Assembly: GCA_020853525.1 (NCBI GenBank)
Contig: JADYYS010000039.1
Coordinates: forward strand, 76,587-140,586
Origin: Ardenticatenales bacterium
GTDB taxonomy: Bacteria; Chloroflexota; Anaerolineae; Epilineales; Epilineaceae
Reading direction: 5' to 3'
Length of the DNA stretch: 64,000 bases
How positions within the stretch are numbered: position 1 is the first letter of the stretch; each line of letters opens with the position of its first letter. The position numbers were made by a program, and so were the translations under genes. Positions 15,386-34,321 of this stretch are shown here, piece after piece. Below the pieces are notes generated by a model. That model had not been told where the DNA came from and did not search any database. It saw only the letters and a program-made list of their open reading frames with translations.

Positions 15386-15520
15386 GGCGCTGGCCTCGGT
15401 GCTCGTCGGCGGGACGAGAAAGCATAACGGCGGCGAGGGGGGAGACGTTGGAAGTATCCGGTGCGGCGAGAGGGCGGTCAACTGTGGTCGTGCCGCGGAG
15501 GCCGTCGGAGCCCCTCACCC

Positions 15521-15553
15521 CTCGACCTCCTCTCGACCTCCTCTCGACCTCCT
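15521..15553. repeat. perfect 11-nt tandem repeat x3 (CTCGACCTCCT; reverse complement AGGAGGTCGAG) in the era / 15566-gene divergent region
   Basis: Read directly from the sequence. It lies 13 nt upstream of the GGAG RBS of the gene starting at 15566. Confidence 0.8.
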
Positions 15554-15565
15554 GCGGAGCGACAG

Positions 15566-16819
15566 ATGTCCCGACAACCACGCAACGCGCTTGTCGCCAT
15601 GACCGCCGTGGTCCTCGCGACGACGCAGATCGTCACTTCCGCCGGCACCGCCGCCTCCCCCGGCCCGATCGACTACATCCCCGCCGATCTCACGGACTAC
15701 GCTCCCGTCGGCGTGCCGGACTTCTCGGCCTGTCGACCGGAGTGGAGCCGCCCCGCCGCCGAGGCGAACGGGCCCGGACAGTGGACGTTCAGCGCGCCCG
15801 TCGCCCTGGCCGACGCCCTGTGGTGGCTGGACTCGCGCGCCGAGCCGCAGCCCGCCGCGCCTCCCTTCGTACGGGACGGCCACGGCCTCGTCACGGCCTA
15901 CCCCGCCTTCGGGCCGCCCCGCGACGACCACGACACGGCGAACCTCGGGCCGCTCATCGACGACCTCGCCGGCCGGGTCAACACCGACAACCGCGGCGCG
16001 CCCGGCAACGTGCGCGGGACGCGATGGGAGGACTTCGTCGACGGTGTGGAGTCGTACGTGGCGACGCGGCGGCTCAAGCCCGGTTACGCCGTCGCCACGA
16101 CGCTGCGACCGACCGGGCTGTGGCTGCGCGCGCAGGCCGACCGGTCCGCCGGCGTCGTCGTGCTGATCGGCGTCTGGGAGCAGGCGGGCGAGGGGTGGCG
16201 CCGGATCGGCGGGCACTACGCCGCGCTGGCCGGGACGGACGCCGCCGGCGAGGTCGTCGCGCTCGCCGACCCGGTGTACGATCAGGCGGTCCGGCCCGAC
16301 AACGGCGGTCGGTTCGTCCCGACCGACGGTGCCGCGCACTCCTGCCGCAACGCGCCGCGCGCCCACGACGACGCCGGCGCCGTCAGCCACGACCGCTACG
16401 ACCTCTTCCCTCCTTCCGGCATGCCGGACGCCGCGTGGGCGCTGGCCGGCTATTTCCGCCCGGAGACGTTCGGCGAGGGCGCCGCGTTCGCCGGCCAGAA
16501 CCCGGCCGACCACCTGGCCGACGCCAGCGGCACGTGGCAGCGCGGCACCCTCATCGCCGTGCTGGACGCCGCCCTCGCGCTCCAGCCCCGCGGCGGCGGA
16601 TCGTCCGTCCCGACGGCGACGCCACCCGCCGCGACGGCCCCACCGACGCCGACGACGGCGCAGAGCGCCGAGCCGACGGATGCGCCGACCGCCCCACCGA
16701 CGCCGACGACCGGCGCGAGCCCGACCCGCGCGCGCCCGACGCCGGCGCCGATCGGGGGCCGGATCCAATTCGATCGCCTCTGGCTGCCGGCGCTGCGCAA
16801 CCAGAGTCGCAGGCGATAG
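15566..16819 (+). CDS. secreted hypothetical protein, possible papain-fold/C39-like peptidase domain, Pro/Thr-rich linker and C-terminal RLWLPALRN tag
   Basis: Frame of ORF 15461..16819. The ATG at 15566 follows GGAG and starts the signal peptide MSRQPRNALVAMTAVVLATTQIVTSAGTAAS. A candidate Cys (DFSACRPEW) and a GGHYAALAG motif suggest a C39-like fold, but this is a weak guess. The C-terminus reads PTPTTAQSAEPTDAPTAPPTPTT...GGRIQFDRLWLPALRNQSRRR. Confidence 0.55.
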   Translation: MSRQPRNALVAMTAVVLATTQIVTSAGTAASPGPIDYIPADLTDYAPVGVPDFSACRPEWSRPAAEANGPGQWTFSAPVALADALWWLDSRAEPQPAAPPFVRDGHGLVTAYPAFGPPRDDHDTANLGPLIDDLAGRVNTDNRGAPGNVRGTRWEDFVDGVESYVATRRLKPGYAVATTLRPTGLWLRAQADRSAGVVVLIGVWEQAGEGWRRIGGHYAALAGTDAAGEVVALADPVYDQAVRPDNGGRFVPTDGAAHSCRNAPRAHDDAGAVSHDRYDLFPPSGMPDAAWALAGYFRPETFGEGAAFAGQNPADHLADASGTWQRGTLIAVLDAALALQPRGGGSSVPTATPPAATAPPTPTTAQSAEPTDAPTAPPTPTTGASPTRARPTPAPIGGRIQFDRLWLPALRNQSRRR

Positions 16820-19548: not shown

Positions 19549-20589
19549 TCACGACGATCGCTCGACATCTCCCGACAGCATCCGCACGTAGCTGTCGTGC
19601 CGCCGCGCGCTGATCCCGCCGCCGCCGACGGCCGCCCGAACGGCGCAGCCGGGCTCGTGGACGTGGCTGCAGTTCTGGAAGCGGCACTGGTTGAGGTAGG
19701 GACGGAACTCGACGAAGCCCCACTGCAGCTCGGCGCCGTCCATCTCCCACAACGCGAGCTCGCGCAAGCCGGGCGTGTCGGCCACCCGCCCGCCGCCCGT
19801 CAGCGGGTGGAGCTCGCCGACGCGCGTCGTGTGCCGCCCCTTGTGGTGCGTCGTGCTGACCTCCCCGACGCCGAGGGCAAGACCGGGCTCGATCGCGTTC
19901 AACAGGCTTGACTTGCCGACCCCGCTCGGCCCGACGACGGCGCTGACGCGCCCATGCAGCGCCTCTTTCACCGCCGCAAGGCCCGCCTCCGTCCGCACGG
20001 AAACGGGGAGGATCCGGTAGCCGATCCGCTCGTACTCCGCCAGGTCGGCGGCCACCGCCTTTTGGATGCCGAGGTCCACCTTCGTGATGACGATCACGCA
20101 GTCCAGCTCGTCGATCTCGGCCAACGCGAGGAAGCGGTCGATCAGGCGCGGGTTCGGGTCGGGACGCTGACAGCTGAACGTGATCAGCAACAGGTCGATG
20201 TTCGCGATGACGACGTCCTTCGACCAGATACCCTTCGGCCCCGGCGCCCGGCGCACCAAGCTGCTCGTCCGCTCGAGTCGCTCGATGATGACGGCATCAT
20301 AGCCACCCCCGCCCGACGGCGCCGCGGTCCGCTGCACCTTCACGCGGTCGCCAAGTGCGATCAGCCCCTCCCGATCACGATCCCGCTTCAGCCGGCCGCG
20401 CAGCGTGGCCGTCAGGATCACGCCCCCCGTCTCGACGGCATAGAACCCGCTCTGCGTCCGGACGACCCAGCCCTCGAGTACGGCATTCGGGTCATGCGGC
20501 ACAACAGCGTCGTGCGCCACCGCCGCGTCTTGGGAAGCCTCCCGGCCGCCGCCGGCCTCGCCGACGGGCGACTCCCCATCGTGCCGCAC
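19549..20589 (-). CDS. rsgA: ribosome small-subunit biogenesis GTPase RsgA (YjeQ)
   Basis: C-terminal 346 aa of ORF 19549..21948 show the OB fold, a circularly permuted GTPase (VGPSGVGKSSLLNAI, DTPG) and a C-terminal zinc motif (CRFQNCSHVHEPGC). The GTG at 20589 is preceded by GGAGAG. The 450-aa Arg-rich N-terminal extension is rejected. Confidence 0.85.
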   Translation of the reverse strand: MRHDGESPVGEAGGGREASQDAAVAHDAVVPHDPNAVLEGWVVRTQSGFYAVETGGVILTATLRGRLKRDRDREGLIALGDRVKVQRTAAPSGGGGYDAVIIERLERTSSLVRRAPGPKGIWSKDVVIANIDLLLITFSCQRPDPNPRLIDRFLALAEIDELDCVIVITKVDLGIQKAVAADLAEYERIGYRILPVSVRTEAGLAAVKEALHGRVSAVVGPSGVGKSSLLNAIEPGLALGVGEVSTTHHKGRHTTRVGELHPLTGGGRVADTPGLRELALWEMDGAELQWGFVEFRPYLNQCRFQNCSHVHEPGCAVRAAVGGGGISARRHDSYVRMLSGDVERSS

Positions 20590-20630: not shown

Positions 20631-22415
20631 TCAAGCGTTCAACCTCACGGCCACACGCCGTGCGTCCCGGAGGATGGAGGCAGCCAGCCCTGCCGCTGCG
20701 AGCGCCAGCAGCGCCCACCACAGGGTGCGCGGGTCGGCGGGTGGGCCGCTGTCGACGCGGAAGTGGTCGAGGGCGATCTCGCCGCCCGCCGCGCCGGCCG
20801 TCAGCCGCAGCGTGTGCGCACCGCCGTCGAGGCCCTCCACGAGCGTCACGTCGGCCCAGGCCGCCTCGGCGCCGCCGAGCGGGCGCGGCGACTGCGCCTG
20901 GCCGTCGAGCTCGATGGCCAGCGTGCCGGCCTGCCGGCCGGTGGCCAGCCGGGCAACGACCTGGCGTCCGCGGAACGAGAAGACCAGATCGTCGCGGTCG
21001 GCGGCGGCCTGCGCGGCGGTGGACCCGGCCGACTGGGCAATGCCGTCGTCGCCGTCCGCCGAAGCGCCGTGCGCCACGAGCACCTGGCCGTCGGAAGCAC
21101 CCTCGCGCGGCAGCCAGCGCCAGGGGCCGCCCGGGGTCACGCGCACCGGCGCGCTGCGCTCCTGCCAGAAGCCGGGGCCGGCAACGGTCGTCCCGCTTGC
21201 GGCGTCGCGCACGGCGTCGAACAGGCGCGTCGGCGTGAAGTCGGGCATGACGGCGGCGAACCAGTAGTCCGCCCGGTCGGGCGTGATGCCGCCCCACTGC
21301 CGAAAGTACCACAGCCCGAAGACGCCGGCCCACGGCCACTCGGCCTGGGCAAGGCGGACGCCCTCGACGGTCCACTCGGCCTGCGACACGGCCGGCACGT
21401 GGCCCCAGATGTTGTCCTCCAAGCCGACCGGCGCAGCGTTCCAGCCGTACTCCGAGAGCCAGATCGGCGTCCCGTCGTCGCCCGCCTCGCGCATGATCCC
21501 CCGCTGCAGTTCGATTCGCCGGAAGTTCAGGCGGTCCGGCGCCGGCGGGTCGTTCGGCGGCCGGTCCATCCCGAAAGCATTGGCCGCCAGGATGTCGAAG
21601 TGCTCGGCGCCGCCGGCGGCATACATCCCGCGCAAGTAGTCGAGATCGTTCAGATTGTCGCCGTCGGCCAGCGACTCGGTGTTGATCGCCAGCGGTGCGG
21701 CGATGATCACCGCTGCGGGGTCCGCCGCCCGCGCGGCGGCGGCGGCGGCGGCCAGCAGCGCCACGTAGTCCGCCGGGTCGACCGGCCGGTAGCCCCACTC
21801 GCTGGCCAGGTTCGGCTCGTTCCAGATCTGGTAGAACCGGACCCGCCCCTTGAAGTGCGCTGCCGCTTCGCCCACGAAGCGGGCGAACTCCGCCGGGTCG
21901 GCCGGGACGTTGTTCGCGCCCGGGCCGTGGTCGTCGCGCGCCGCCCAAGCGGGCGTCCAGTCGATCCGCCAGATGACCTCGATCCCGCTCGCGTCACAGA
22001 TGTCGACGATCCGATCGTACTTGGCCCAGTCGATTCGCCCCCGTTCGCGCTCGACGTCGGCCCACGGCAGGTGCTGCTTGGCCCAGCGGATCCCGGCGTC
22101 GGCGGCCAGCGCAACGGTCTGTTCCGCCTTCCACACCTCGACCTCCCGCTCGAGGAAGACGTTGGCGCCCCACGGGTGCACGTCGGTGAACGGGATCGTC
22201 GCCAGGCGATGGGCGGCCGCACCGGCCAACCCGGCGCCGGACGGCGGGCGGAGCGCGAGCCACAGGGCCGCGCCGGCGACACCGAGCAGCGCCAAGGCGG
22301 ACAGCCGCAATCGACGCAGAAGCGGTGGTGGGATCACGCGTCGCGCGCGGGCGTGGCGATCACCGCCGGGCGAACGGCGGGCAGGCCGCGCGGTGGGGCG
22401 CAGGTCGGGGCGCAC
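20631..22415 (-). CDS. membrane-anchored glycoside hydrolase, GH5-like (cellulase-family TIM barrel)
   Basis: ORF 20631..22415. An N-terminal TM is followed by a catalytic-type motif RVRFYQIWNEPN (NEP acid/base) and then a C-terminal TM. The exact start is uncertain. Confidence 0.55.
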   Translation of the reverse strand: MRPDLRPTARPARRSPGGDRHARARRVIPPPLLRRLRLSALALLGVAGAALWLALRPPSGAGLAGAAAHRLATIPFTDVHPWGANVFLEREVEVWKAEQTVALAADAGIRWAKQHLPWADVERERGRIDWAKYDRIVDICDASGIEVIWRIDWTPAWAARDDHGPGANNVPADPAEFARFVGEAAAHFKGRVRFYQIWNEPNLASEWGYRPVDPADYVALLAAAAAAARAADPAAVIIAAPLAINTESLADGDNLNDLDYLRGMYAAGGAEHFDILAANAFGMDRPPNDPPAPDRLNFRRIELQRGIMREAGDDGTPIWLSEYGWNAAPVGLEDNIWGHVPAVSQAEWTVEGVRLAQAEWPWAGVFGLWYFRQWGGITPDRADYWFAAVMPDFTPTRLFDAVRDAASGTTVAGPGFWQERSAPVRVTPGGPWRWLPREGASDGQVLVAHGASADGDDGIAQSAGSTAAQAAADRDDLVFSFRGRQVVARLATGRQAGTLAIELDGQAQSPRPLGGAEAAWADVTLVEGLDGGAHTLRLTAGAAGGEIALDHFRVDSGPPADPRTLWWALLALAAAGLAASILRDARRVAVRLNA

Positions 22416-22486: not shown

Positions 22487-24646
22487 TCAACGTCCTGCCG
22501 TTGTGCCGCGGTTCTCGACGATGCCGAACGCTTCGATCCCGCGGAAGGACGGGCCGGTGCGCCGCACGTCGTCCGCCCCGAACGGCCGGGCATTGCGGAG
22601 CGCAGCGGCGAGATGGGCGGCCGACATCCGGGCCGGCGTCCAGCGCACGTCCTGGCGCACGACCTCGCCGGTCGTGCGGCAGTACTCGACCGCGACATTG
22701 TCGAGGCCGAACGCCATCGGGTTGGACCCGTTCGTCGTCGCGCCGAAGAAGATCTGCGCCGAGTTGAACCCATCGCGCTTGGCCCACAGATCCTTGAGGT
22801 CGACCGAGAGCGGCACCCACTGGCCAAGCGGCAGCAGCTGGCCGCCGACGGGCGAGTCCTCGCTCAACCACTGTGCCGCCTGATCCGTGGGCGCGTCGCC
22901 GACGACGCCGAGGAAGAACTTGTCGGCGTTGTCGCCGTTGCCCCGCGTCTCGTTGCCGAGCATGCCGAGCGCCAGCTTGATCTGAACGGACGCGATGTCC
23001 TCGAGCGGCAGCGTCTCGATCTTGCCGGAGTTCACCAAGATGTCCTCGGCGTTGTCGTAACCACCCAGGTCGATCGCGAAGCGGCTCTGGAACCCCGGCG
23101 TGCGGAGCAGCTCATGGCCGTTGAGAGCGCGGCCCGACCAGCCTTCGCCCCCGAGTTCGAAATCGCCGTTGACGACCGGATTCTGGCAATTGGCAGGCAG
23201 CGTCGGCACGGCGCTCGGCGTCGGCCCGGGACCGCTGTTGCCCGTCACCTCGGCCACCTCGTCCGCCCACGCCACCGCCTCGCCCCGCAGGAACACGGCC
23301 ACCCTGAAGCGCCCGGGTTCGAGCGCCGACCCGTCGGCCGCATTCACGCATTCGGACAGGAAGCCTGAGGCGGCCGTGGTCTTCGTCGTCGGGTTGAGGC
23401 GCTCGTTGCCGTCCGGCAGGATGATCTTCTGCCACCTGCCCGCCACGTCCTCGTACCACTGCACGGACATCAGGGTGTCGACGGGCAACCCGGTCCAACG
23501 CTGGGCCGAACACAGCTGAAAGATGCGGCCGAAACGCGTGCCCTGGCCGACGAGCGTGCCGTCGTTCAGGACGTTCGTCCCGAATCCCACCACCACGCCG
23601 CCGGGCAATGCCGTCGGTTGGGACGGTGCCATGATGTCCTTGTCGACGTTGTTCACGGCGATCGGGAGGTACGCGCGCGACGAACCGTCCGGCGTCGCGG
23701 GCGGCGGTGTGGCCTCCGACGCCGGCGTCTCGCCCGGCGCCGGCGTTTCGCGCAGCCGCGTGGCCGAAGGCGTCACACCCGGCTCGAGCGTGGCGGTCGG
23801 CACGGAGGAAGAGAGTCCCTCGATCGTCACGTTGTCGATCAGCGAGCCGGTGTGCGTGCCCGTCGGGGTTGCGTCCTCCACGCGGAAGTAGATCCGCGCC
23901 GCCGGCAGGCCGGCGGCAAACGGGAACTTGAGCGGATCCTGCAGCGAGAGCCAGCGCTTGCGGAGATCCGTGCCGTCCCCCGACCGGTAGTTCAAGGAAT
24001 AGCACCGCAACTCCGTCGGCACCGCGGTGCTGGCACAGACCCTGAACGACAGGACGACCTCGTTCGTGCCGTTGGGCAGGAAGCCGACCGGGCCATCGAG
24101 GTAGAGCAGCAGGTTCACCTGCACGCCGCCGTCGAAGTCCGTCGCGTCGAACGGCCCGTAGACGAGATCGGTGGCCACCGGCTGATCGTAGTTCGAGCCC
24201 GGCGACAGGCTGGCGCCAAGCCGGCCGCCGCCGATCGACCACGGCGCTTTCAGCCCGCCCCCCGGCCGCCCCGGTGCGGGCGCGGCGAGGAGCACGTCCT
24301 GGTTGCCCCAGGTGTAGTTCTCTTGCTGACCTTGCGCCACCCGCAAGTCGTAGGTCGTCCAACCCTCGGGCGGGAAGTCGCCTTCGAAGTCCTCTTCCAC
24401 CACGGGCACGGTGCCCTGTTGGAGGGACTGCGGCCGCACGGCAAGGGGTCGATGATCGACCGACCGGCCGCCGCCGTCCTCGATTGACACGAGCCCCACC
24501 GAAGCCTCTTCGACGATCATTGCCGCGGCCGGTGCCGCCGTGAACACGTCCGACCGATCGGCACGCGCCGCCGGCGCGCCCCCTTGCAGCGCCCACATCC
24601 CCGCGACGACCGCACCGAGCACCGCCGCTCCCTCGCGCATCCTCAT
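22487..24646 (-). CDS. large secreted protein with two jelly-roll (MAM/CBM4_9-like) domains
   Basis: C-terminal 719 aa of ORF 22487..26014. The ATG at 24646 is preceded by GGGGAGGAG and starts the signal peptide MRMREGAAVLGAVVAGMWALQGGAPAARA. Domains are EEDFEGDFPPEGW...GSLIDNVTIEGL and NGDFELGGEGW...GLDNVAVEYC, separated by a Pro/Thr linker. Confidence 0.6.
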   Translation of the reverse strand: MRMREGAAVLGAVVAGMWALQGGAPAARADRSDVFTAAPAAAMIVEEASVGLVSIEDGGGRSVDHRPLAVRPQSLQQGTVPVVEEDFEGDFPPEGWTTYDLRVAQGQQENYTWGNQDVLLAAPAPGRPGGGLKAPWSIGGGRLGASLSPGSNYDQPVATDLVYGPFDATDFDGGVQVNLLLYLDGPVGFLPNGTNEVVLSFRVCASTAVPTELRCYSLNYRSGDGTDLRKRWLSLQDPLKFPFAAGLPAARIYFRVEDATPTGTHTGSLIDNVTIEGLSSSVPTATLEPGVTPSATRLRETPAPGETPASEATPPPATPDGSSRAYLPIAVNNVDKDIMAPSQPTALPGGVVVGFGTNVLNDGTLVGQGTRFGRIFQLCSAQRWTGLPVDTLMSVQWYEDVAGRWQKIILPDGNERLNPTTKTTAASGFLSECVNAADGSALEPGRFRVAVFLRGEAVAWADEVAEVTGNSGPGPTPSAVPTLPANCQNPVVNGDFELGGEGWSGRALNGHELLRTPGFQSRFAIDLGGYDNAEDILVNSGKIETLPLEDIASVQIKLALGMLGNETRGNGDNADKFFLGVVGDAPTDQAAQWLSEDSPVGGQLLPLGQWVPLSVDLKDLWAKRDGFNSAQIFFGATTNGSNPMAFGLDNVAVEYCRTTGEVVRQDVRWTPARMSAAHLAAALRNARPFGADDVRRTGPSFRGIEAFGIVENRGTTAGR

Positions 24647-24765: not shown

Positions 24766-25956
24766 TCAGGGGGAGCGGCGCAGGAACCCGTATGGCAGGT
24801 AGATCCGGTGTTCCGGCGTGACGAGAACCGTAGGCGTTGCCGTCGATGTCGTCGGCGTCGCCGTGGTCGGACCGACCGTCGATGTCGGTTCCAACGTTGC
24901 CGTCGGCGCGTCCGTGACGGTGCCGACGACGGTCGGCGGCGGCGGGAGCACGAACGTCCCGGTAGCCGTCGCCGTGGCGGTGGCCGTCCGGCGGTCGGGC
25001 GTGGCCACGGACGTCGGCGGCGTGCTGGGCGGCGAGCCCGTCCGGGTGGGCGTCGCGGTCGGCGGCGCGACGGTGCCGGTCGGGGTGCGCGTCACGGTCG
25101 GCGTGCCGGAAGGCGCTCCGGTCGGTGAACCCGTCGGGCCGGCGGTGGCGGTGGCGGCCGTCGGCATGGGTGTGCCGGTGCGCGTGGCGCTCGGCGACGG
25201 CAACGCCGTGTGGGTTGCGCTGACGGTGGGCGTGGGCGTGGCGGTCGGCGCGGCGGTTGTGGCCGCGCCGGTCGTGGTGGGCGGCGGCGCATCCGACAGG
25301 CCGTGGATGACGACGCGGTCGACGAACGCACCCTGGTGCGGCGTCTCGAAATCGCGGTCGCGGAAGCGGAAGACGACGAACGCCTCCTCTTGCCCGCCGA
25401 CGAGTGGGAACTGGAGCTTCGGCTCGAAGTAGTTCCAGTCGATCTGCAGCACGCCGACTGAGAAGCAATCGATACCGCCGGGTGAGCCGGGGTTGGTGAC
25501 GCAGACCTGGAAGTCCGTCTCGCGGTGCAGGTCGAGCTTGAAGTACGTCGCCACCTGCAGCCCGTCCTCGAACGGTCGGGTGTCGATCGGCCCGAACATC
25601 AGGTCGCTCTCCGACGGGCCGGCGTACGTGCCGCCGCACGCCAGGCCGCCGCCCGCGGTGCCGCCGCCGACCGACCAGACGCTGGCGCTGCCGCCGCCGG
25701 AGGGCGCCGTGCACGTCGTCCGTGCCCATACGTACTGTCCGGGCGGCGTCATGTTGTCCTGGACATACCAGTCCGGCGGCGGGAACGCGCCCTCGAAGCC
25801 TTGGTCCTCGATCAGCGTGGCGATCGTGACGTTGCCGGCGACGTTGCCGCCGGCGCCGTACGCCGCACCGCACGCCAGCACGAGCGCCGCCAGGCCGGCC
25901 AGTGCGGAAGGACGGATGGTGATGGTTGGCCGGAGCGAACCGGATTCGCGCGACAT
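24766..25956 (-). CDS. secreted protein with MAM/CBM4_9-like jelly-roll domain, long Thr/Pro/Ala linker and C-terminal RIYLPYGFLRR tag
   Basis: Frame of ORF 24766..26091. The ATG at 25956 follows GGAGG and starts the signal peptide MSRESGSLRPTITIRPSALAGLAALVLACGAAYGA. The domain EDQGFEGAFPPPDW...GAFVDRVVIHGL is paralogous to those in the 22487 and 18346 genes. Confidence 0.6.
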   Translation of the reverse strand: MSRESGSLRPTITIRPSALAGLAALVLACGAAYGAGGNVAGNVTIATLIEDQGFEGAFPPPDWYVQDNMTPPGQYVWARTTCTAPSGGGSASVWSVGGGTAGGGLACGGTYAGPSESDLMFGPIDTRPFEDGLQVATYFKLDLHRETDFQVCVTNPGSPGGIDCFSVGVLQIDWNYFEPKLQFPLVGGQEEAFVVFRFRDRDFETPHQGAFVDRVVIHGLSDAPPPTTTGAATTAAPTATPTPTVSATHTALPSPSATRTGTPMPTAATATAGPTGSPTGAPSGTPTVTRTPTGTVAPPTATPTRTGSPPSTPPTSVATPDRRTATATATATGTFVLPPPPTVVGTVTDAPTATLEPTSTVGPTTATPTTSTATPTVLVTPEHRIYLPYGFLRRSP

Positions 25957-26056
25957 CGAAGCCTCCAATCGTTCGGTTAACATTCGCCACGGCCCGAGCC
26001 GTGCGACGTGGCACGGTTCGGGTGGCACGGTTCGGGCGGCACTGCGGTCCGGCGCG

Positions 26057-27481
26057 TCATCGCTGGCCGCCGGTCGGCAGGACGATCTCATACTTGAGCG
26101 GCCGGAGGTAGGTCTGACGCAACGGCTCGCCGCTCAGCCGCTGGCCGCCGACGAGCACGAGCTGCTGCCGCGCGAGCACCGCCAGCCCGGCGCCTCGGTC
26201 CGGCGTGTAGCCGCGGACGACCGCGAACTCGGACCACATGCCGCGCTCGAGGTCGTAGGCCAGCGTACCGATGTCGAGGTGGGTGCTCCAGCCGCCGCCA
26301 ACGACGTACAACCGCTCGCCCGACACGTTGGCGACGGCAAGCGCGTGGCCCGCGCGCGCGTCGGGCAGCGGCGCGGCGGTCTCATCCCATCGATCGGCGC
26401 TCGGCTCGAACGGGCGGAACACCCAGTGGTTGTTCTCCGGCTTGCCGCCGGGGCTCCGGCCGCCGACCACGTGGATCCGCCCTTCGAAGGCCGCTGCCGC
26501 CAGGTCGGCCCGCGGCCGCAGCAGCCGATCGGGCTCGACGGTCCAGGCGTCCGTACTCCAGTCGTAGCGCAGGATCGCATCCGTCGCGCTGGATGGATCG
26601 TCGTCGGTGCGGCCGCCGAAGAGGTAGACCTGACCGTCGAGCATCGCCAGACCGTAGCCGCAGACGGCGCGGCCGGCCGGCAGCGGCGCGGCGGTCCGCC
26701 ATGTGTCGGTGCGCGGATCGAAGATCTCGACGACGCCGGTCGCCCGCCCATCGGCCGCGCAGCCGCCCGGCACGATGATCTTGCCCTGTACGGCCACCCC
26801 CGCCACGTCGCGCACCGCAGTCGGTTTCGAGGCGCGCACCCGCCAGTCGAGCCCGCCGCCGCCGGCATACTGCAGCGTCGTGCTCACCAGGCGGCCGCCG
26901 TCCGTCGCCCCGGCGATGACGAACAGGTCGGCGCCCGCGGCAACGGCCGCCAGCCCGGTGCGTGCCTCGGGCAGCTGTCGGCCGAGGACCCAGTCCTGTG
27001 GCGCCGGCGCCGGCGCGGTCGGCGGAGGGGTCGGGGTCGCGGTGCCGTGTGTCAGACGCCACGTGGCGGCGCCGAGGATGGCCAGCACGGTCAGCGCTGC
27101 GCCGCCGAGCGTGAGCATGACGGTCCGCCGCGCCCGCTGACGGGTGCGCGAGAGCTCCTCGGCCAGACGCGCCGCCGCACCGCCGTCGCTGCGGCGCACG
27201 TCTTCGTCGCCGCCGCCGCCATCCGGGCTGCCGTCGCTTGGGTCGCCGAGCGCGATCAGCCCGGTGTCGAGAGCCCGCCGCATCGCCTCGGTCCGGTTGG
27301 CCGTACCGAGCTTGGCGTTGATGTTCGTCAGGTGCTTCTTGACCGTCGCCTCGGAGATCGTGCGGGCGTGCGCGATCTCGCGGTTCGTCGCGCCGGTGGC
27401 GACGAGCCGGAGGATCTCGAGCTCGGTATCCGATAGGGCGGCCGCCGGCGAGGCGGCGGTCGGCGCTTGGGGGTCGGCCAT
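26057..27481 (-). CDS. one-component membrane regulator: N-terminal LuxR/FixJ-type HTH, single TM, extracytoplasmic Kelch-repeat beta-propeller
   Basis: C-terminal 474 aa of ORF 26057..28060, with ATG at 27481. The HTH is LSDTELEILRLVATGATNREIAHARTISEATVKKHLTNINAKLG. The TM is VMLTLGGAALTVLAILGAATW. Repeated Kelch-like blades follow (…LFVIAG…KIIVPGG…VYLFGG…IHVVGG…LYVVGG…LVLVGG). Confidence 0.6.
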   Translation of the reverse strand: MADPQAPTAASPAAALSDTELEILRLVATGATNREIAHARTISEATVKKHLTNINAKLGTANRTEAMRRALDTGLIALGDPSDGSPDGGGGDEDVRRSDGGAAARLAEELSRTRQRARRTVMLTLGGAALTVLAILGAATWRLTHGTATPTPPPTAPAPAPQDWVLGRQLPEARTGLAAVAAGADLFVIAGATDGGRLVSTTLQYAGGGGLDWRVRASKPTAVRDVAGVAVQGKIIVPGGCAADGRATGVVEIFDPRTDTWRTAAPLPAGRAVCGYGLAMLDGQVYLFGGRTDDDPSSATDAILRYDWSTDAWTVEPDRLLRPRADLAAAAFEGRIHVVGGRSPGGKPENNHWVFRPFEPSADRWDETAAPLPDARAGHALAVANVSGERLYVVGGGWSTHLDIGTLAYDLERGMWSEFAVVRGYTPDRGAGLAVLARQQLVLVGGQRLSGEPLRQTYLRPLKYEIVLPTGGQR

Positions 27482-27488
27482 CCGGCGA

Positions 27489-28604
27489 TTATAGCATCCG
27501 GGTCCGACCGCTCTCTCTGCCGCGGTCGTGTCGATCGCCGATGCGCGCGCCGCGCTTCGTGCCGATGGACACCGCGAACCGTGCCGGCGCCCGTCGGCCG
27601 CGCAGCCGCGCCGTGAGCGGCCGCAGCGCCCACCGGACGTCGACGTACGGCCGCGCGTGCCGAAAGTCCAGCCCGATGGTCGCGCCGATCCGCTCGAGCT
27701 CGCCGGCGACGAGGAACTCGCGGCTGCCCTGCGCGGTGGATGGATAGCCGTAGCGCGCCGCGAACGCCGCGGCGCGCTCGGCCACCATCTGCACCCCGCT
27801 CGCGTGCCGCGCGTAGATCGGGCTGTCGACGACGACGACCCGGCCACCGGGCCGCACGGCACGGGCCGCCTCGGCCAGCGTCGCCGCCGGATCGACGGCG
27901 TAGTGCAGGCTGGCGCTGAAGACGACGAGATCCGCGGCGCCGTCCGCGACGGGCAGGCGGTCGGCATGGGCGACGGCGCGGACGAATCGTCGACCCAGGC
28001 CGCGCGCGACGAGATCGGCCGCGTACGGTTCGCCCGCCCCCAGCCCGTCGCCCGCATCATCGCTCACGTCGACGGCCAGCACGGCAGCGCCGCCAACCGC
28101 AAGCCGCCACGCCAGCCAGCCCGTGCCGGCACCGACGTCGATGACCCGCCCGGGCATGCCGCCGGCCAGCACCGCGCGGCAGAACGTGCGGTAGCTTGCG
28201 GCGCGGATCCGCCACTGCCAGGCCAGCGGCGTCGTCGACAGCGCGTCGGGCAGCGCGAACCGCTCCGCGGCCGTCATCGCTGCACGGCCCTCGGCGCGCC
28301 GCACGCCGGTGTACTCGGCCAGGAAGTCCGCGAGCAGGGCCGCATCCGTGTCGCAGAGGAAGCGCCAGATGCCGTCCCGACACGGCCACCGCGCGCCGCA
28401 TGCGGCGCAGCGGACCGCGGCGACGGCACCGGAGGCGGAATGGGCGTCGGCAAGGGCATCGGCATCCGCGTCATCCGGGTCCGATTCCACGGAGGCCGTG
28501 GACTCCGGCAATTTGCCGAGCGGGTGCCCGCAGGCCGGACAGCGCATCGCCCAGCCGACCGCATCCATGCCGGCCGCCGGTCCGTGCGCGTCCGCCGACG
28601 TCAT
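27489..28604 (-). CDS. class I SAM-dependent methyltransferase with N-terminal zinc-ribbon (CPACG...CAACG)
   Basis: C-terminal 371 aa of ORF 27489..29702. The ATG at 28604 overlaps the upstream gene stop as ATGA. SAM motif I is VIDVGAGTGWLA. Confidence 0.75.
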   Translation of the reverse strand: MTSADAHGPAAGMDAVGWAMRCPACGHPLGKLPESTASVESDPDDADADALADAHSASGAVAAVRCAACGARWPCRDGIWRFLCDTDAALLADFLAEYTGVRRAEGRAAMTAAERFALPDALSTTPLAWQWRIRAASYRTFCRAVLAGGMPGRVIDVGAGTGWLAWRLAVGGAAVLAVDVSDDAGDGLGAGEPYAADLVARGLGRRFVRAVAHADRLPVADGAADLVVFSASLHYAVDPAATLAEAARAVRPGGRVVVVDSPIYARHASGVQMVAERAAAFAARYGYPSTAQGSREFLVAGELERIGATIGLDFRHARPYVDVRWALRPLTARLRGRRAPARFAVSIGTKRGARIGDRHDRGRESGRTRML

Positions 28605-29584
28605 CGCGCGCGCCGCAGCACGACGGCGACGTGGTCGGCCCACAGCGCCGCCGTCGGCAGCCGGCTGGCTGCGGCTTCGGCGGTCGCCCAGGCGCGCCAG
28701 AGCCACGGTCGATCGAATGTCCCGCCCCGCGGCACGGCCCAGCTGGGCGGGACGACCACGCCGATCGGCACGACGCGGACGAGCTTCCACGCCGGGCCGA
28801 GACCGCCGGCCACGGCGCGTGGCGAGCGATACCAGACCGGCCAGCGCCCGGTGCCGAGATCGGCCGAAGCAAGGCCGCGCCAGCGCCGCGTCGCCCGCCG
28901 GACGTCCCCGCGCGCCAGGCCGAGGATGGTCTCCCAGGCGCAGCCGGGGGGCATCACGACGGCGACGAAGCACCCGCCCGGTCGTACGAGGGCCGCCAGC
29001 GCCGCTCCGAGCGGGGCGAGGTCGCCGATACAGTTCAGCACGCCGAAGTCGGCCAGGGCGCCGGCGTAGGGCGAACGATCGGCCGGGCGACGGTTCGCCG
29101 GCGGATCGGGCCGCGAGACGCCCACCGGCCACGTCGACGGATCTCCGACGTCGGCGACGTGGACGGCGACGCTGCCGACGCCGTTGTCGGTCATGGCCGC
29201 TGCGACGGCAGCGGCGTCGCGCGCCACGGCCACCATCTGCGGCGCAACGTCGAGCGCCACGACGTCGATTCCGCGGGCGGCCAGGTGGAGGGCGTCGACG
29301 CCGGTGCCGCAGCCGAGGTCGAGGACGCGGTCGGCGCCGGCGAAGACCTCGTCGGCGACGCGCCATACGGCTTGCCGGACGATCCGGCCGGACGGGTGGT
29401 CCGAGAACACCTCGTCGTAGCGGGACGCGAGAACGTCGAAGGCGGCCGCCAAGGGCGATCCCGACGGCAATGGGGCCGTCGGCCGCTCGTCCGTCACCAC
29501 CGCCGCGCTCACGGCCGGCGCGCCCCGTCGACCGGCCGGTCGTTCCAGCGCATACCCCAGCGGCTCCACTCGGCCCTGAGCCAT
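28601..29584 (-). CDS. class I SAM-dependent methyltransferase (paralog of preceding gene)
   Basis: ORF 28601..29584. Motif I is VLDLGCGTGVDALHLA. The more probable start is GTG at 29512, forming a GTGA overlap with the stop of the upstream radical SAM gene. Confidence 0.75.
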   Translation of the reverse strand: MAQGRVEPLGYALERPAGRRGAPAVSAAVVTDERPTAPLPSGSPLAAAFDVLASRYDEVFSDHPSGRIVRQAVWRVADEVFAGADRVLDLGCGTGVDALHLAARGIDVVALDVAPQMVAVARDAAAVAAAMTDNGVGSVAVHVADVGDPSTWPVGVSRPDPPANRRPADRSPYAGALADFGVLNCIGDLAPLGAALAALVRPGGCFVAVVMPPGCAWETILGLARGDVRRATRRWRGLASADLGTGRWPVWYRSPRAVAGGLGPAWKLVRVVPIGVVVPPSWAVPRGGTFDRPWLWRAWATAEAAASRLPTAALWADHVAVVLRRAR

Positions 29585-31089
29585 GCGCGGGCGATCGGGA
29601 GGAGGGCGTGCGGGCGGTCGCGGCGCAGACGCGCGAGCGCGACGGCATGGCGCAGGCGGCGGGTGGCGTGGCGGTAGTAGCGCGGGCCGGGGCGGCCGGC
29701 AACGTGGTGGTCGCGGTCCGTGGCGGCCGCCCAGTCGGCGGGCGGCGTCACGCGGTCGGCGACGGCGTCGAAGTACGGCGTGCCCTTGATCGGGTAGGCG
29801 ACGGTCGTGAGGAAGATGTCGGGGTCCGTCCGGCGCACGAAGTCGACGGTGGCCTCGATGTCGGCCGTCGTCTCGCCGTCATAGCCCCACATCAGGAACA
29901 TCCCGACCGCGATGCCTGCCGCCTTGAGCCAGGCGGTGGCCTGCGCCACCTCGGCCACGGAAACGCCGCGCTCCATCGCGTCCAGCACGCGCTGTGAGCC
30001 GCTCTCGCTGCCGATCCAGATTCGAAAGGCGCCCATCTCCCGCAGGACCTCGACGGCGGCGGGCGACAGTCGGTCGGCGCGGGTGATGCACTCGAACGGG
30101 CGCTTCAAGCCGCGCCGGCCGAGCTCGGCGCCGTACTCGGACAGCCAGCGCGGGTGGATCGTGAAGACGTCGTCGGCATACCAGAGCATGTCCGGGTTCC
30201 AGCGCTCGATCAGGTGGGCCACCTCGTCGGCCACATCCGCGGGCGAGCGGCGGGCGTGGTGGTGGCCGAAGACGCTGTGGCTGCACCAGCGGCACTTGTA
30301 CGGGCACCCGCGGGCGCAGATCAGGTTCAGCGAGCCGGCACCGTGGTGCGTCCGCCAGCACGTGAGGTAGGCATCGATGTCGATCGCCTCGCGGTCCGGC
30401 CACGGCACGCCGTCGAGGGCGGTGAGCAATGGGCGCGGCGGAGTGCGCACGACCGCGCCGGCCTCGTCGCGGAAGGCGATGCCGGCGATGTCGTGCAGGC
30501 GGTGCGGACCGTGGCGGGCGAGTGCGGGCAGCAGCTCGGCCATCGTCACCTCGCCCTCGCCGATGACGATCACGTCGGCGCCGTTGGCCAGGTAGGCCTC
30601 CGGCCAGTTCGCGCTCTCCGGCCCGCCCAGCACGACGGTGAAGCCATGCGCCTTGGCATGGCGCGTCAGGTCGAGCACGCTCGCACGGGTCGTAAGGTTG
30701 GTGTACAGCCCGAGCACGGGCGCTTCGCGGGCCGCCAGACGGGCATGGGCCGTCGCGCGCGTGGCGAACGTCGTGTCCTGCACGCCGACGGTGAATCCGG
30801 CGCGCTTGAGGTACGCGCTGACATAGAGCAGGCCGAGCGGCGCGTACGGCTTCATCACGTGCTGCTCGTGCGCGTCCTCGCCCAGGAAGTAGCTGTGCGA
30901 CAGGAGGACGTCCAACCGGCGGGCCTCCGGAATTGCGGCGGCCGGCCATGGCACGAGCGATGTTCGGAGCGTGTCGGCCGGGGCGAGTGTGGGAATGGTA
31001 GCGCAACGCGGGGTCCGGGTCCGCTCGGTCGCGGACGGATCGGACCACGGGTTCAGCCGTCGTGCGATCGACTGACCACGGGGCGGCAC
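29509..31089 (-). CDS. B12-binding domain-containing radical SAM protein (class B rSAM)
   Basis: ORF 29509..31089 with a GTG start. An N-terminal cobalamin-binding Rossmann-like region precedes CPYKCRWC (CxxxCxxC) and IWIGSESGSQRVLDAM. Confidence 0.8.
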   Translation of the reverse strand: MPPRGQSIARRLNPWSDPSATERTRTPRCATIPTLAPADTLRTSLVPWPAAAIPEARRLDVLLSHSYFLGEDAHEQHVMKPYAPLGLLYVSAYLKRAGFTVGVQDTTFATRATAHARLAAREAPVLGLYTNLTTRASVLDLTRHAKAHGFTVVLGGPESANWPEAYLANGADVIVIGEGEVTMAELLPALARHGPHRLHDIAGIAFRDEAGAVVRTPPRPLLTALDGVPWPDREAIDIDAYLTCWRTHHGAGSLNLICARGCPYKCRWCSHSVFGHHHARRSPADVADEVAHLIERWNPDMLWYADDVFTIHPRWLSEYGAELGRRGLKRPFECITRADRLSPAAVEVLREMGAFRIWIGSESGSQRVLDAMERGVSVAEVAQATAWLKAAGIAVGMFLMWGYDGETTADIEATVDFVRRTDPDIFLTTVAYPIKGTPYFDAVADRVTPPADWAAATDRDHHVAGRPGPRYYRHATRRLRHAVALARLRRDRPHALLPIARAWLRAEWSRWGMRWNDRPVDGARRP

Positions 31090-31105
31090 GACGTCTCGGC
31101 CTCCG

Positions 31106-32692
31106 TCACCCCGCCGACGCCGTCAGATCCGGCGGCGCGGAGGGCGGCCGCACCGTCGGCCGTGTCGGCGCCGCGTTGCGGGCGACCGCGGCCTCGGCGG
31201 CGAGAACGTCCCACGCGGCCATCGCCGCGTCCAGCTCGGCGTGCGCGACGGCACGGGCGGACGGCGCGGCCGCATCGCCGGCCGCGTCGGCGCGGGCGAC
31301 GGAGTGGCGCGCGTCGAGTTCGCGGTGCAGCTGGGCGTGCAGTGTGCGATAGAACCGGGTCGTGAACGTGCCTTGGAAGAGCATCGCCAGGTCCATGCTG
31401 TCCTGCCAGTGGCCATCGCCGGCCAGCTCGTCCGCCACGCGGTGGTGGAAGGGCGTGCCGGGCAGCGGGTAGCTGACCGAGACGCCGATCGCGTCGGGCA
31501 CGACGGCGCGCACGAGGGCGGCGGTGGCCTCGACGTCGGCCCACTCCTCGCCGGGATAGCCGAGCTGAAGGAAGAAGGCGACGCGGATGCCGCGGGCGCG
31601 CAGGCGCGCGGCGGCGGCCGGAACGTCGGCGGCGCGGATGCCCTTGTCCATCGCGTCCAGCACGGGCTGGGAGCCGCTTTCGACGCCGAGCCAGACCTCG
31701 ACGCAGCCGGCGCGCGCCAGGCCGTCGGCGGCGGCATCGCTGATCAGGTCGACGCGGCTTTGGATCGTGAACGGCAGGTCGGCGCCGCGCGCGGCGACGG
31801 CCTCGCCGAAGGCCGCCGTCCATTCGGGGCGCAGGCCGAAGATGTCGTCGGCGAACCAGACGTGGTCCGGCGCGTGCTCGCGCTTGAGCGCCGCCAGCTC
31901 GTCGGCGACGGCGTCCGGCGTGCGCATCGCGTAGCGCTGGCCCCAGATCGGTTTGGCGCACCAGTTGCAGTGGAACGGGCAGCCGCGCGTGCTGGCGGCG
32001 TTGAGAGACCAGTGGCCGTGCGCCGCTCGCCAGACGGCGCGGTAGGCGTCGAGGTCGACGAGATCGCGGGCCGGCGGCGGAAAGCGGTCGGGGATGCGTT
32101 CCGTCGGGCGGGGCGGGGTGCGGGCGATGCCGCCGCCGACGCCGGCGAGCACGAGGCCGGGCACGGCGGACAGGTCCGGGCGAACGGCGTCGTGCCGCGT
32201 GGACCGGCGATCGACTTCGGGCGCCGTCGGATCGGTGTGGCCGAGGAGCACGCGCACCGCTTCGACGATCGTCCAGTCGGCCTCACCGTAGGCCACCGCC
32301 GCCGCGCCGGCGTCGAGAAAGCGCTGCGGTGCGTCGCTGGCGTCGGAGCCGGCGACGAGCGTCGGCAGGCCGCGGTCCGCCGCCAGGGCGACCATCCGGA
32401 GCGCGGCATCGCGCATGACGGCCAGGCACATCTTGGAATAGAAGTTGAAGCTGTCCTCGAACAGGACGACGAGCCGCGGGCGATGGGCGTCCAGCGCGTC
32501 CTCGAACACTTCCGGGCCCGGGGCGATCATCGCATCGAACAGCGCGACGCTCCACCCCGCGTCCCGGACGGCTGCCGCGGCGTACAGCGTGCCGAGGGGC
32601 GGGTACGGACGCCGGAGCGCGGCCTGCTTGGGGTCGAGCGCCATGAACAGCGCGTGCCCGAACAGGACATCGACGCCGCCGGCGGTGTTCAT
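31106..32692 (-). CDS. B12-binding domain-containing radical SAM protein (paralog)
   Basis: ORF 31106..32692. Contains CPFHCNWC and VWLGVESGSQPVLDAM. It is the same architecture as the adjacent gene, with a 16-nt gap between them. Confidence 0.8.
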   Translation of the reverse strand: MNTAGGVDVLFGHALFMALDPKQAALRRPYPPLGTLYAAAAVRDAGWSVALFDAMIAPGPEVFEDALDAHRPRLVVLFEDSFNFYSKMCLAVMRDAALRMVALAADRGLPTLVAGSDASDAPQRFLDAGAAAVAYGEADWTIVEAVRVLLGHTDPTAPEVDRRSTRHDAVRPDLSAVPGLVLAGVGGGIARTPPRPTERIPDRFPPPARDLVDLDAYRAVWRAAHGHWSLNAASTRGCPFHCNWCAKPIWGQRYAMRTPDAVADELAALKREHAPDHVWFADDIFGLRPEWTAAFGEAVAARGADLPFTIQSRVDLISDAAADGLARAGCVEVWLGVESGSQPVLDAMDKGIRAADVPAAAARLRARGIRVAFFLQLGYPGEEWADVEATAALVRAVVPDAIGVSVSYPLPGTPFHHRVADELAGDGHWQDSMDLAMLFQGTFTTRFYRTLHAQLHRELDARHSVARADAAGDAAAPSARAVAHAELDAAMAAWDVLAAEAAVARNAAPTRPTVRPPSAPPDLTASAG

Positions 32693-32716: not shown

Positions 32717-34045
32717 CTACGGTGCGGCACGGACATCGGCATTGCGAAGCGAGACGGGCAGGAAGACCCGCCCGCCCTCGGTGGACGGCGTCGTCGGCGA
32801 CGGGACGGGGGTGGCGGAGGACGGCGTCGGCACGGCGGTCGTGGCCGTCGGGCCGGGCGGGGTGACGGTCGGCGCCGTGTCGGGCGAGAGGTCGACCGCG
32901 AAGCCGTCGGACAGGTACCGCACGCCGTTGCCCTCGAGGCGCAGGCCGCCGTACACGAGGACGCGATCGCCCGCCGCATCCCACACCGCGCTCTGACCGC
33001 TGCGCGCGCTCGGCGCCGTGCCGGCCGGCGTGATCGCCCGCCAGCGCGGGGCGGTCGGGTCGCGATAGTCGAGCGCCCAGACGTCGGACATCTCGCCGAG
33101 GACGGGCGAGTAGCCGCCGTACAGGATCGCCCAGCCGGTGGATCCGGCGAACGTCAGCGTTGCGCCGCTCCGGGCGCTCGGGCCGGCGCCGGCCTGCGCC
33201 GCGATGTCCGACCACGCACCGGGCGCATCGATCGCCGCGAGGTCGGCGCGCCAGAGATGGGTGGTGGGCGTGGCGTCCGGCCCCTGTCCGCCGAACGCGA
33301 CGAGGTGGCCGGAGCGGGGGTCGCGGTCGGCGGCCTGGAAGAGGAGCTGGAACGGCACGGCCGGCACGGACCGCCACTGGGCCGCGTTCAGGTCGTTCAC
33401 GTCCAGCGCCCACGTCGCGGTCATGATATCGCCCGAGCCGCTGAACTCGCCGCCGGCGGCGATGACGCGCCGGCGCGGCGCGTCGAAGGCCAGGAGCCCG
33501 TTCGCCAGCGGGAGGGACTGCACGTCGGCGATGCGCCGCCACGTGACCGCACCGCCGGTCGCCGGCCAAACGGCGCCGTACGTGGTGGCGCCCGTGCAGT
33601 GGCAGATCAGCAGCGCCGACGTCTCCGCGGCCCCGTCATCGGAGATGCGCACGGCGCGCGCGCCGACGAGACCCCGGCCGGACAGTCCGGACACGGGCCG
33701 GTCGCCGCTCTCGGCCAACGTCGTCCAGGCCTGCGCCGGCGCGAGCGCAAGCGACCGCAGCGCGTCCGGCGGCTGGAAATCGCCCTGCTCGCCGCCGATG
33801 AGCGTCATCGAACGGCCGTCGATCACCGCGCCGTGGCCGCCGAGGGCGCGATCGCCCGGGAGCGCCTGCCATGACACGCCGGCGAGGTCGTCGGTCTGCG
33901 CCTGAGCCGTGCCGACCGGGCGAGCGGCTACGAGGGCGACGATGACGGCGACGGCCAGCGCGAGCGCCTTGGCGAGGGGCGCGGCCGTCGAACGGGACGG
34001 GCGGCGGACGCGGGGCGACTGCGCAATGGGATGCGGATCGATCAC
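32717..34045 (-). CDS. secreted Kelch-repeat beta-propeller protein with Pro/Thr linker and C-terminal RVFLPVSLRN tag
   Basis: C-terminal 442 aa of ORF 32717..34801. The GTG at 34045 is preceded by GGAGG with a 6-nt spacer and starts the signal peptide ...LAKALALAVAVIVALVAARPVGTAQAQT. Repeated propeller blades are present (…LIGGE…, …IAAGGE…, …VAFGGQ…, …ILYGGY…, …LVYGGL…). The stop lies 25 nt before the start of the downstream rSAM gene. Confidence 0.55.
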   Translation of the reverse strand: MIDPHPIAQSPRVRRPSRSTAAPLAKALALAVAVIVALVAARPVGTAQAQTDDLAGVSWQALPGDRALGGHGAVIDGRSMTLIGGEQGDFQPPDALRSLALAPAQAWTTLAESGDRPVSGLSGRGLVGARAVRISDDGAAETSALLICHCTGATTYGAVWPATGGAVTWRRIADVQSLPLANGLLAFDAPRRRVIAAGGEFSGSGDIMTATWALDVNDLNAAQWRSVPAVPFQLLFQAADRDPRSGHLVAFGGQGPDATPTTHLWRADLAAIDAPGAWSDIAAQAGAGPSARSGATLTFAGSTGWAILYGGYSPVLGEMSDVWALDYRDPTAPRWRAITPAGTAPSARSGQSAVWDAAGDRVLVYGGLRLEGNGVRYLSDGFAVDLSPDTAPTVTPPGPTATTAVPTPSSATPVPSPTTPSTEGGRVFLPVSLRNADVRAAP

Positions 34046-34294
34046 GAACGGCCTCCGGACATCGTGGCGCGGCGGGTGTGCCGGGCGCGGCGCATCCGGG
34101 CTGTCCCGGGCGCGGCGGTGGGGTTGCGGGGAGCCGCCACGCACCCGCAGGCGCATGTCGGGCCGGGGGCGGCGGGCGCGTCGATTGTAGGCGACGGGCC
34201 AGCCGGGTCGCAAGGGCGAACGCGGGCGGGAGGTGCGGCGGACCGCGCGGCGCGACATGGCGCTCGGGTGGGTCGGCGATGCGGGCGACCCATT

Positions 34295-34321
34295 GACGCC
34301 CGGCCCCAACGCCATACAATG
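34295..34321 (+). promoter_or_regulatory. candidate sigma70-type promoter (TTGACG-N15-TACAAT) upstream of CAP-domain gene
   Basis: Seen in the 445-nt divergent intergenic region. The hexamers are near-consensus. Confidence 0.45.

Follow-up and report, generated by a model that had tools for sequence, protein, structure and literature searches.

The locus examined here raises the question of whether a LuxR-type DNA-binding domain can be controlled from outside the membrane by a Kelch propeller on the same polypeptide, and whether a secreted Kelch protein encoded upstream takes part in this control. The gene lies on the minus strand of a 64,000-nt stretch of contig JADYYS010000039.1 from an Ardenticatenales bacterium (GenBank assembly GCA_020853525.1). 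This whole stretch is called the window; coordinates are positions within it, and its six-frame translation was used for the in-window profile searches. The gene product combines an N-terminal helix-turn-helix (HTH), one transmembrane (TM) segment and a C-terminal Kelch propeller. It is probably a single-pass transmembrane transcription regulator, a one-component system acting from the membrane.

Domain architecture and predicted topology

The regulator was divided into domains by Pfam searches, alignment of 40 homologs, and an AlphaFold2 (AF2) model built from that 40-sequence alignment, which had a mean predicted local distance difference test (pLDDT) score of 88. The following features were defined.

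26057..27481, minus strand: coding sequence of the LuxR-HTH/TM/Kelch regulator, 474 aa; stop codon 26057..26059
27266..27439, minus strand: LuxR/GerE-type four-helix HTH, aa 15-72 (Pfam, AF2, homolog alignment)
27185..27265, minus strand: acidic, Gly-rich disordered linker, predicted cytoplasmic, aa 73-99 (pLDDT below 50; length and sequence variable in homologs)
27047..27184, minus strand: single long helix, aa 100-145 (AF2 and hydropathy), with the TM core, aa 119-141, at 27059..27127
26987..27046, minus strand: Pro/Thr/Ala-rich linker, predicted extracytoplasmic, aa 146-165 (sequence and alignment)
26096..26986, minus strand: six-bladed Kelch beta-propeller of the Keap1/KLHL type, aa 166-462 (Pfam, AF2, Foldseek, phmmer)
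26060..26095, minus strand: conserved C-terminal tail ending ...YEIVLPTGGQR (P469 at least 90% conserved)

The GerE/LuxR HTH model PF00196 matched aa 15-70 with 59.9 bits (cut-off 23.5), and in the AF2 model the four helices of the domain (18-28, 33-40, 44-58 and 63-72) had pLDDT values of about 95. The HTH is the best conserved region of the protein and its DNA-contact positions are invariant; in the recognition helix, T46, V47, K48, H50 and N53 were identical in the 40 homologs. Matches to NCBIfam models, among them PedR, MadR, EpsA, CsgD, SdiA and PA1136, covered the HTH alone and stayed far below the cut-offs. Three identities within the LuxR group were rejected. A quorum-sensing LuxR was excluded because the autoinducer-binding domain PF03472 was not found by Pfam in the regulator. 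A NarL/FixJ response regulator was excluded because no Response_reg receiver domain was found by Pfam ahead of the GerE HTH, which starts at residue 15. The LuxR regulators with 10-12 TM segments (DadR family) did not fit, since the protein has one TM segment and its HTH is N-terminal.

The long helix at aa 100-145 begins with the charged juxtamembrane part LAEELSRTRQRARR and continues into the TM core. The hydrophobic stretch VMLTLGGAALTVLAILGAA, which separates the HTH from the propeller, has RTRQRARR on its N-terminal side and the Pro/Thr/Ala-rich stretch on its C-terminal side; this stalk resembles those of the neighboring secreted proteins. The segment at aa 119-141 is the sole hydrophobic one, with a Kyte-Doolittle mean of 2.12 over 19 residues, and each of the 40 aligned homologs had exactly one strongly hydrophobic region, at the same place between HTH and propeller. 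Within 15 residues of the TM segment, these homologs carried on average 4.6 Lys/Arg residues on the HTH side compared with 1.3 on the Kelch side. Because of this positive-inside bias, an N-in/C-out topology is predicted, with the HTH in the cytoplasm and the Kelch propeller outside the membrane. The DNA-binding domain and the TM region share one polypeptide; PMC10269533 defines a transmembrane transcription regulator (TTR) by a DNA-binding domain together with one or more TM regions. The HTH-TM-Kelch order proposed in the initial annotation is borne out by the Pfam domains, the conserved hydrophobic segment and the AF2 model, and the one-component transmembrane design proposed with it is supported, at the level of sequence-based inference, by the charge bias and the single TM segment.

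Kelch repeats were detected by Pfam over about aa 170-450, with 105 bits for PF24681 (E 3.7e-30, cut-off 50) and 81.5 bits for Kelch_1 (E 2.8e-23, cut-off 20.1). AF2 modeled this region as a closed propeller of six four-stranded blades with pLDDT above 95. The closest known folds were the Keap1/KLHL propellers (Foldseek E about 1e-20, target-normalized TM-scores 0.8-0.87). The same relationship was found with a family propeller profile, which matched Keap1 at E 1e-60, and with phmmer, where the single sensor propeller sequence scored 70-90 bits against human KLHL20, NS1-BP and Keap1. No solved structure unites a Kelch domain with an HTH and a TM helix. Of the 40 homologs, 24 have both Cys241 and Cys274 and 14 have neither, and the 23 closest family members contain no further cysteine except for one extra in P0002. 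Such a pair fits a disulfide formed in an oxidizing, extracytoplasmic compartment. The six-frame translation of the window yielded no second GerE domain and no second Kelch domain of the regulator's subtype.

Mode of action, downstream genes and the secreted Kelch protein

The most likely working model, drawn from domain content and predicted topology, is a membrane regulator in the style of ToxR and CadC that is built on a LuxR-type DNA-binding domain and uses the Kelch propeller as its input. The propeller would bind a ligand that is extracellular or associated with the envelope and could be a protein or a glycan, and binding would alter the oligomeric state or the stability of the regulator. 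LuxR-type HTH domains, such as those of GerE and NarL, usually bind DNA as dimers. The simplest model is therefore that the ligand may control dimerization of the HTH, with the change passed on through the juxtamembrane and TM helix, and that dimerization would set DNA binding at promoters near the membrane. A flexible linker of ~45 residues and the charged juxtamembrane helix join the HTH to the TM segment, and the linker could give the membrane-tethered HTH access to DNA. Among possible targets, the regulator's own downstream genes would be the most probable; they encode secreted beta-sandwich proteins and a membrane-anchored PslG-like glycosidase.

24766..25956, minus strand: downstream gene 1, secreted 396-aa protein (GGAGG Shine-Dalgarno sequence, Pro/Thr-rich linker, C-terminal RIYLP)
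22487..24646, minus strand: downstream gene 2, secreted 719-aa all-beta protein (homolog 3' of the regulator in 12 of 12 lineages)
20631..22415, minus strand: PslG-like glycosidase of glycoside hydrolase family 39 (GH39), clan GH-A, with N- and C-terminal TM anchors; start position approximate
19549..20520, minus strand: RsgA GTPase (gene start overlapping the 3' end of the PslG-like gene in orthologous loci)

The neighborhood was compared across 12 lineages with at least 43% identity to the window regulator. The secreted ~700-aa protein and the PslG-like protein were encoded downstream of the regulator, with RsgA nearby, in all 12, and in two distant loci, L005 and L010, the PslG-like gene again came directly after the regulator. 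The PslG-like protein has P. aeruginosa PslG as its best solved relative (PDB 4zn2, E 1.1e-13); several of its homologs are named PslG by the Joint Genome Institute (JGI), and Pfam matches to GH10 and GH5 were marginal. As further observations on this protein, its N-terminal TM anchor carries a conserved IPPPLLRR motif, and more than 400 homologs occur in the protein collection, of which the organism-named ones belong to Chloroflexota and one, 94% identical, comes from a metagenome-assembled genome (MAG) of Ardenticatenales. Downstream proteins 1 and 2 share an N-terminal domain, and the downstream secreted proteins gave no sequence match in Pfam, NCBIfam or PDB. For downstream protein 2, seven homologs were retrieved, and the AF2 model (pLDDT 60) contained three beta-sandwich domains. 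Foldseek with this low-confidence model returned weak matches to lectins, carbohydrate-binding modules (CBMs) and RbmA, so that a lectin/CBM-like character is proposed tentatively. The downstream genes as a group point to an envelope, matrix or exopolysaccharide module. The regulator is probably co-transcribed with them because its stop codon overlaps the downstream gene by 4 nt in L092 and lies 5 nt from it in L088; the spacing is also tight in L083.

Several points weigh against this reading of the locus. The topology is based on hydropathy, charge bias and AF2, and the lectin/CBM reading of the downstream proteins relies on a model with a pLDDT of 60. No operator motif was identified when the regions 5' of the regulator, 5' of the secreted Kelch gene and in the intergenic space downstream of the regulator were compared across orthologous loci; these regions had promoter elements alone in common and no shared palindrome. 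Between the regulator stop and the next gene, at 25993..26036, two perfect tandem copies of CCCGAACCGTGCCA are followed by an inverted copy with two mismatches. This 14-nt repeat occurs five times in the window at up to two mismatches, compared with 1.55 expected. It was dropped as a functional element, being absent from the orthologs and having an RNA fold like that of shuffled sequences (z -0.02). Around most of the distant family members the neighbors differ. Clustering of the genes around 80 distant loci gave varied contexts with GT4, Wzt-like ABC ATPase and PMT_2-type glycosyltransferase genes and genes for secreted proteins, and no universal partner gene. The conserved order includes the housekeeping gene RsgA and a flanking Peptidase_MA_2 gene, and the synteny may therefore partly reflect vertical inheritance and not co-regulation. 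A literature search found no paper or functional study on the family with this GerE-TM-Kelch architecture.

The same domain order and single TM helix are also compatible with proteolytic release. Here the tethered form would be inactive, and a signal at the Kelch domain would lead to site-1 and site-2 cleavage and set the LuxR-type HTH free in the cytoplasm, as in anti-sigma factor pathways, in those of the regulated intramembrane proteolysis (RIP) type, and in a recent proposal for CadC. The long disordered linker at aa 73-99 could be the cleavage region, and cleavage-dependent activation of CadC is reported in PMC11484849. A conserved Peptidase_MA_2 gene lies a few genes away on the opposite strand, and no site-2 protease or dedicated protease gene adjoins the regulator. 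To our knowledge Peptidase_MA_2 is not a RIP protease, which counts against this mechanism. The sequence offers no feature that separates release from DNA binding at the membrane, and we regard release as unlikely though still worth keeping in mind.

The DNA upstream of the regulator contains the second Kelch protein of the locus, separated from it by a gene cassette.

32717..34045, minus strand: secreted Kelch protein (signal peptide, propeller, Pro/Thr-rich linker, C-terminal RVFLP)
27489..32692, minus strand: cassette separating the secreted Kelch gene from the regulator, with genes for two B12-binding radical SAM enzymes and two class I methyltransferases

The secreted Kelch gene has a GTG start and a GGAGG Shine-Dalgarno sequence, and its propeller was matched by PF24681 at E 1.3e-19 in Pfam. 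A promoter-like site, TTGCGA-18-TACAAT at 34184..34213 on the minus strand, lies about 130 nt 5' of the gene and is conserved in L081. This site belongs to the interval 34184..34320, where divergent promoter-like sites were observed between a CAP-domain gene on the plus strand and the secreted Kelch gene on the minus strand. Rfam found no relevant RNA or riboswitch in the region from 19 to 37 kb of the window, which includes the ~130-nt leader of the secreted Kelch/B12-radical SAM genes. The radical SAM/methyltransferase cassette is directly 5' of the regulator in 9 of the 12 lineages, some of which have an additional SPASM radical SAM gene and an amidohydrolase gene in it. In NCBIfam, the cassette genes resembled class B radical SAM enzymes and class I methyltransferases in a generic way only, with all scores far below the cut-offs. 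In L089, a 45-aa open reading frame (ORF) at 5554..5691 between the radical SAM genes was considered as a precursor of a ribosomally synthesized and post-translationally modified peptide and rejected. The ORF matches the N terminus of the enzyme, so that in this MAG the radical SAM gene is split or frameshifted.

According to the initial annotation, the regulator is a paralog of the secreted Kelch protein, both are encoded in the same putative operon, and the pairing suggests a ligand/sensor or decoy relationship. The paralogy did not hold. BLASTP between the two proteins gave 27% identity over 209 aa (E 7e-6), and phmmer with the sensor domain gave 4.2 bits, compared with the 70-90 bits obtained against the human propellers. 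In the six-frame translation of the window, the propeller profile of the regulator family did not match the secreted Kelch protein at E ≤ 0.01, and that protein lacks the sensor's family-specific motifs, for example KPTAVRD. Because of these weak scores and the missing profile match, the two propellers are assigned, by sequence comparison, to a common fold superfamily and not to a recent common origin. The lack of KPTAVRD-type motifs also makes a decoy of identical specificity less likely. The operon claim stood in part: the genes form a conserved cluster and share a strand, but the regulator has a promoter-like element of its own (described below) and belongs with the downstream genes.

As for the pairing itself, the secreted Kelch gene is found within the cluster in 9 of the 12 related lineages, a recurrent but not obligatory linkage. 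Where the cassette is lacking, it is directly 5' of the regulator, clearly in L087 and probably in L001, where a fragment is seen at the contig edge. Both Kelch proteins are extracytoplasmic by prediction and both end in a related hydrophobic-LP motif. This recurrence weakly suggests a ligand/sensor relationship. The remote kinship of the propellers and the lack of shared sensor motifs argue against it. So does the distribution of the secreted Kelch gene: L085/L086 and L089 lack it, it was not recognized in L093, and it is missing near almost all distant family members. A ligand/sensor or decoy pair is accordingly judged improbable.

A C-terminal motif was observed in several proteins of the region. 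The pattern (G)R-h-[Y/F/W]-L-P-h-h-h follows Pro/Thr-rich linkers at window positions 32767, 24804 and 23674 on the minus strand and 16778 on the plus strand, and it recurs in the orthologs from L081, L083, L087 and L088. The secreted Kelch protein, downstream protein 1 and the product of the ORF at 15461..16819 carry it at their extreme C terminus. In the ~700-aa downstream protein it is located in mid-protein, and it is also C-terminal on a Peptidase_S8 protein of L087. The end of the regulator, YEIVLPTGGQR with the conserved P469, is similar to it. No Pfam or NCBIfam model covers the motif, which may be a sorting, attachment or processing signal of Chloroflexota.

This tail motif, common to the secreted neighbors, could be taken to mean that the regulator is mainly a Kelch protein anchored in the envelope, where it would have a structural or an enzymatic, perhaps mutarotase-like, function, and that its HTH is not a signal-responsive transcription factor. 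JGI calls some members 'N-acetylneuraminic acid mutarotase', and weak matches to NanM-type models were obtained in NCBIfam and Pfam. These scores were far below the curated cut-offs (33 versus 243 bits for TIGR03548, 30 versus 416 for PRK14131 and 23.5 versus 256 for TIGR03547), and identity as a NanM/YjhT sialic acid mutarotase was rejected. By sequence and fold the nearest relatives are the protein-binding Keap1/KLHL propellers, and the invariant DNA-contact positions of the HTH would be hard to explain without a DNA-binding function. We therefore consider a purely structural or enzymatic protein very improbable.

Start codon and promoter

The regulator as described above begins at ATG 27481, which is the correct start codon of the gene. 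The full minus-strand ORF, 26057..28060, comprises 667 codons, of which 474 residues follow from this ATG. The initial annotation took the first 193 codons to be untranslated and named a real start further upstream as the finding that would speak against its architecture; the evidence supports ATG 27481. The methyltransferase ORF upstream of the regulator ends at 27489, 7 nt short of the ATG, and its orthologs align as far as the stop of the window gene. GC content by codon position was 0.745/0.579/0.903 in the 474-codon regulator sequence and 0.585/0.881/0.803 in the 193-codon extension, which is thus out of phase. Read in the frame of the methyltransferase, the DNA of the extension gave 0.806/0.581/0.880, the codon phase of that gene. 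No homolog carries the extension. The regulator homologs listed are 430-500 aa long, and all 40 that were aligned begin at the aligned Met. The start is assigned because the position of the methyltransferase stop, the codon-position GC, the homolog starts and a conserved TGnTATAAT element agree. Although the 667-aa ORF runs without interruption, a real protein of that length, with an Arg/Ser-rich N-terminal extension and another architecture, is already contradicted by the present data, the extension being out of coding phase inside the methyltransferase gene and absent from all homologs, and a conserved promoter-like element being located directly 5' of ATG 27481.

27488..27496, minus strand: promoter-like element of the extended -10 type, TGcTATAAT, whose hexamer ends 6 nt from the A of the ATG

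Four orthologous loci, L081, L083, L085 and L001, likewise have TGnTATAAT 6-8 nt 5' of the ATG; their regulator proteins are 69, 48, 47 and 48% identical to that of the window, respectively. In L085 the element is retained despite a different upstream gene. An exact TATAAT located 5-10 nt ahead of an in-frame start was present at 29 of 86 family loci, a strong enrichment over the 11 of 404 found when neighboring genes were scored likewise. The regulator gene has no Shine-Dalgarno sequence, whereas neighboring genes carry GGAGG. Because the -10 hexamer ends 6 nt before the ATG and no Shine-Dalgarno sequence is present, these features suggest a leaderless regulator mRNA made from its own promoter, with its predicted start at the A of the ATG.

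Distribution of the family and relation to known regulators

The GerE-TM-Kelch architecture is not rare: it was found in over 200 proteins and in the genomes of at least 80 species of Chloroflexota. A search with the regulator protein gave 210 matches, and among the best 120 of these nearly all were 430-500 aa long and combined GerE with Kelch. The few organism-named proteins among the matches listed came from MAGs of Caldilineae, Ardenticatenia or Anaerolineae, and many matches bore the JGI label 'CsgD family transcriptional regulator / N-acetylneuraminic acid mutarotase'. When species-representative genomes were scanned, at least 561 stretches were confirmed. The best 80 of these were examined and were all from Chloroflexota, including Longilinea arvoryzae KOME-1, Anaerolinea thermophila, Roseiflexus and Oscillochloris as well as Ardenticatenales, Caldilineaceae, Promineifilaceae and Thermoflexales.

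In the 2023 census of TTRs by Demey et al., GerE was the third most common DNA-binding domain (4,943 proteins, 9.8%), and Kelch_1 occurred in 9 of 50,302 proteins (PMC10269533). One row of that census describes Rcas_0145 of Roseiflexus as '1 TM; GerE, Kelch_1 x3, Kelch_5; 454 aa' (PMC10269533). This protein (WP_011997685.1, Roseiflexus castenholzii) has the same string of GerE, one TM segment and Kelch in 454 aa, compared with 474 aa here, and is known only as that row of a supplementary table, without an assigned function. The Roseiflexus homologs (loci L013 and L017) are 32-35% identical over nearly the entire regulator. The window protein differs from Rcas_0145 in belonging to an Ardenticatenales/Caldilineae-like subclade with at least 43% identity, the conserved Cys241/Cys274 pair and a neighborhood of its own. 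It is a further member of a catalogued, uncharacterized family within a known class of regulators.

ToxR, TcpP, CadC and VtrA resemble the regulator in having an N-terminal cytoplasmic DNA-binding domain, a flexible linker, a single TM segment and a C-terminal extracytoplasmic sensor. However, the DNA-binding domain of these receptors is a winged helix of the OmpR/PhoB type (Trans_reg_C), whereas that of the regulator is a tetrahelical LuxR/GerE HTH. Their sensors are small alpha/beta folds, often with a partner such as ToxS, TcpH or VtrC, in contrast to the Kelch propeller. Because no Trans_reg_C winged helix was found in the regulator by Pfam at E ≤ 0.1, the protein shares the ToxR-type topology and is not a member of the ToxR family. 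A LuxR-type HTH attached to the membrane is also known from Eggerthella lenta, where small-molecule-responsive activation by the membrane-embedded LuxR-type activators DadR, HcdR and CadR was proven genetically (PMC9734109). A GerE domain can therefore function while tethered to the membrane. Those activators have a sensor of 10-12 N-terminal TM segments and a C-terminal HTH, whereas the regulator has an N-terminal HTH, one TM segment and a soluble propeller ectodomain. The Keap1/KLHL propellers are likewise six-bladed and of the Kelch_1 type, but belong to eukaryotic proteins that act as cytosolic substrate adaptors with BTB/BACK domains, whereas the propeller of the regulator is predicted to be extracytoplasmic and is fused to a TM segment and an HTH.

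A more far-reaching proposal, which we put forward as speculative and rather unlikely to hold in full, is that GerE-TM-Kelch proteins constitute a Chloroflexota-wide sensory system. In it, the Keap1-like propeller at the surface would monitor the condition of the envelope or matrix of its own cell through a protein or glycan from the neighboring genes, and the regulator, made from a leaderless mRNA, would directly control the operon of secreted lectin-like proteins and the PslG-like glycosidase. The shared 'P/T linker - R-h-Y/F-L-P' C-terminal motif would then be an undescribed surface-attachment or sorting signal. If true, this would be the first functional role of a Kelch propeller as the input of bacterial transmembrane signaling.

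At the level of the window, the value of the analysis lies chiefly in annotation, namely the correct start, the topology, the promoter and the operon context. With its predicted leaderless promoter, Keap1-like ectodomain and conserved envelope-type operon, the family is a reasonable experimental target; current understanding is not overturned. Transmembrane one-component regulators are understood nearly wholly from a few proteobacterial proteins of the ToxR/CadC type. A LuxR-type counterpart whose propeller is large and well folded, and which occurs in hundreds of Chloroflexota, cultured species among them, would offer a tractable second model. The family could help to show how a signal is transferred across the membrane to a DNA-binding domain, and it might reveal what filamentous Chloroflexota sense at their surface.

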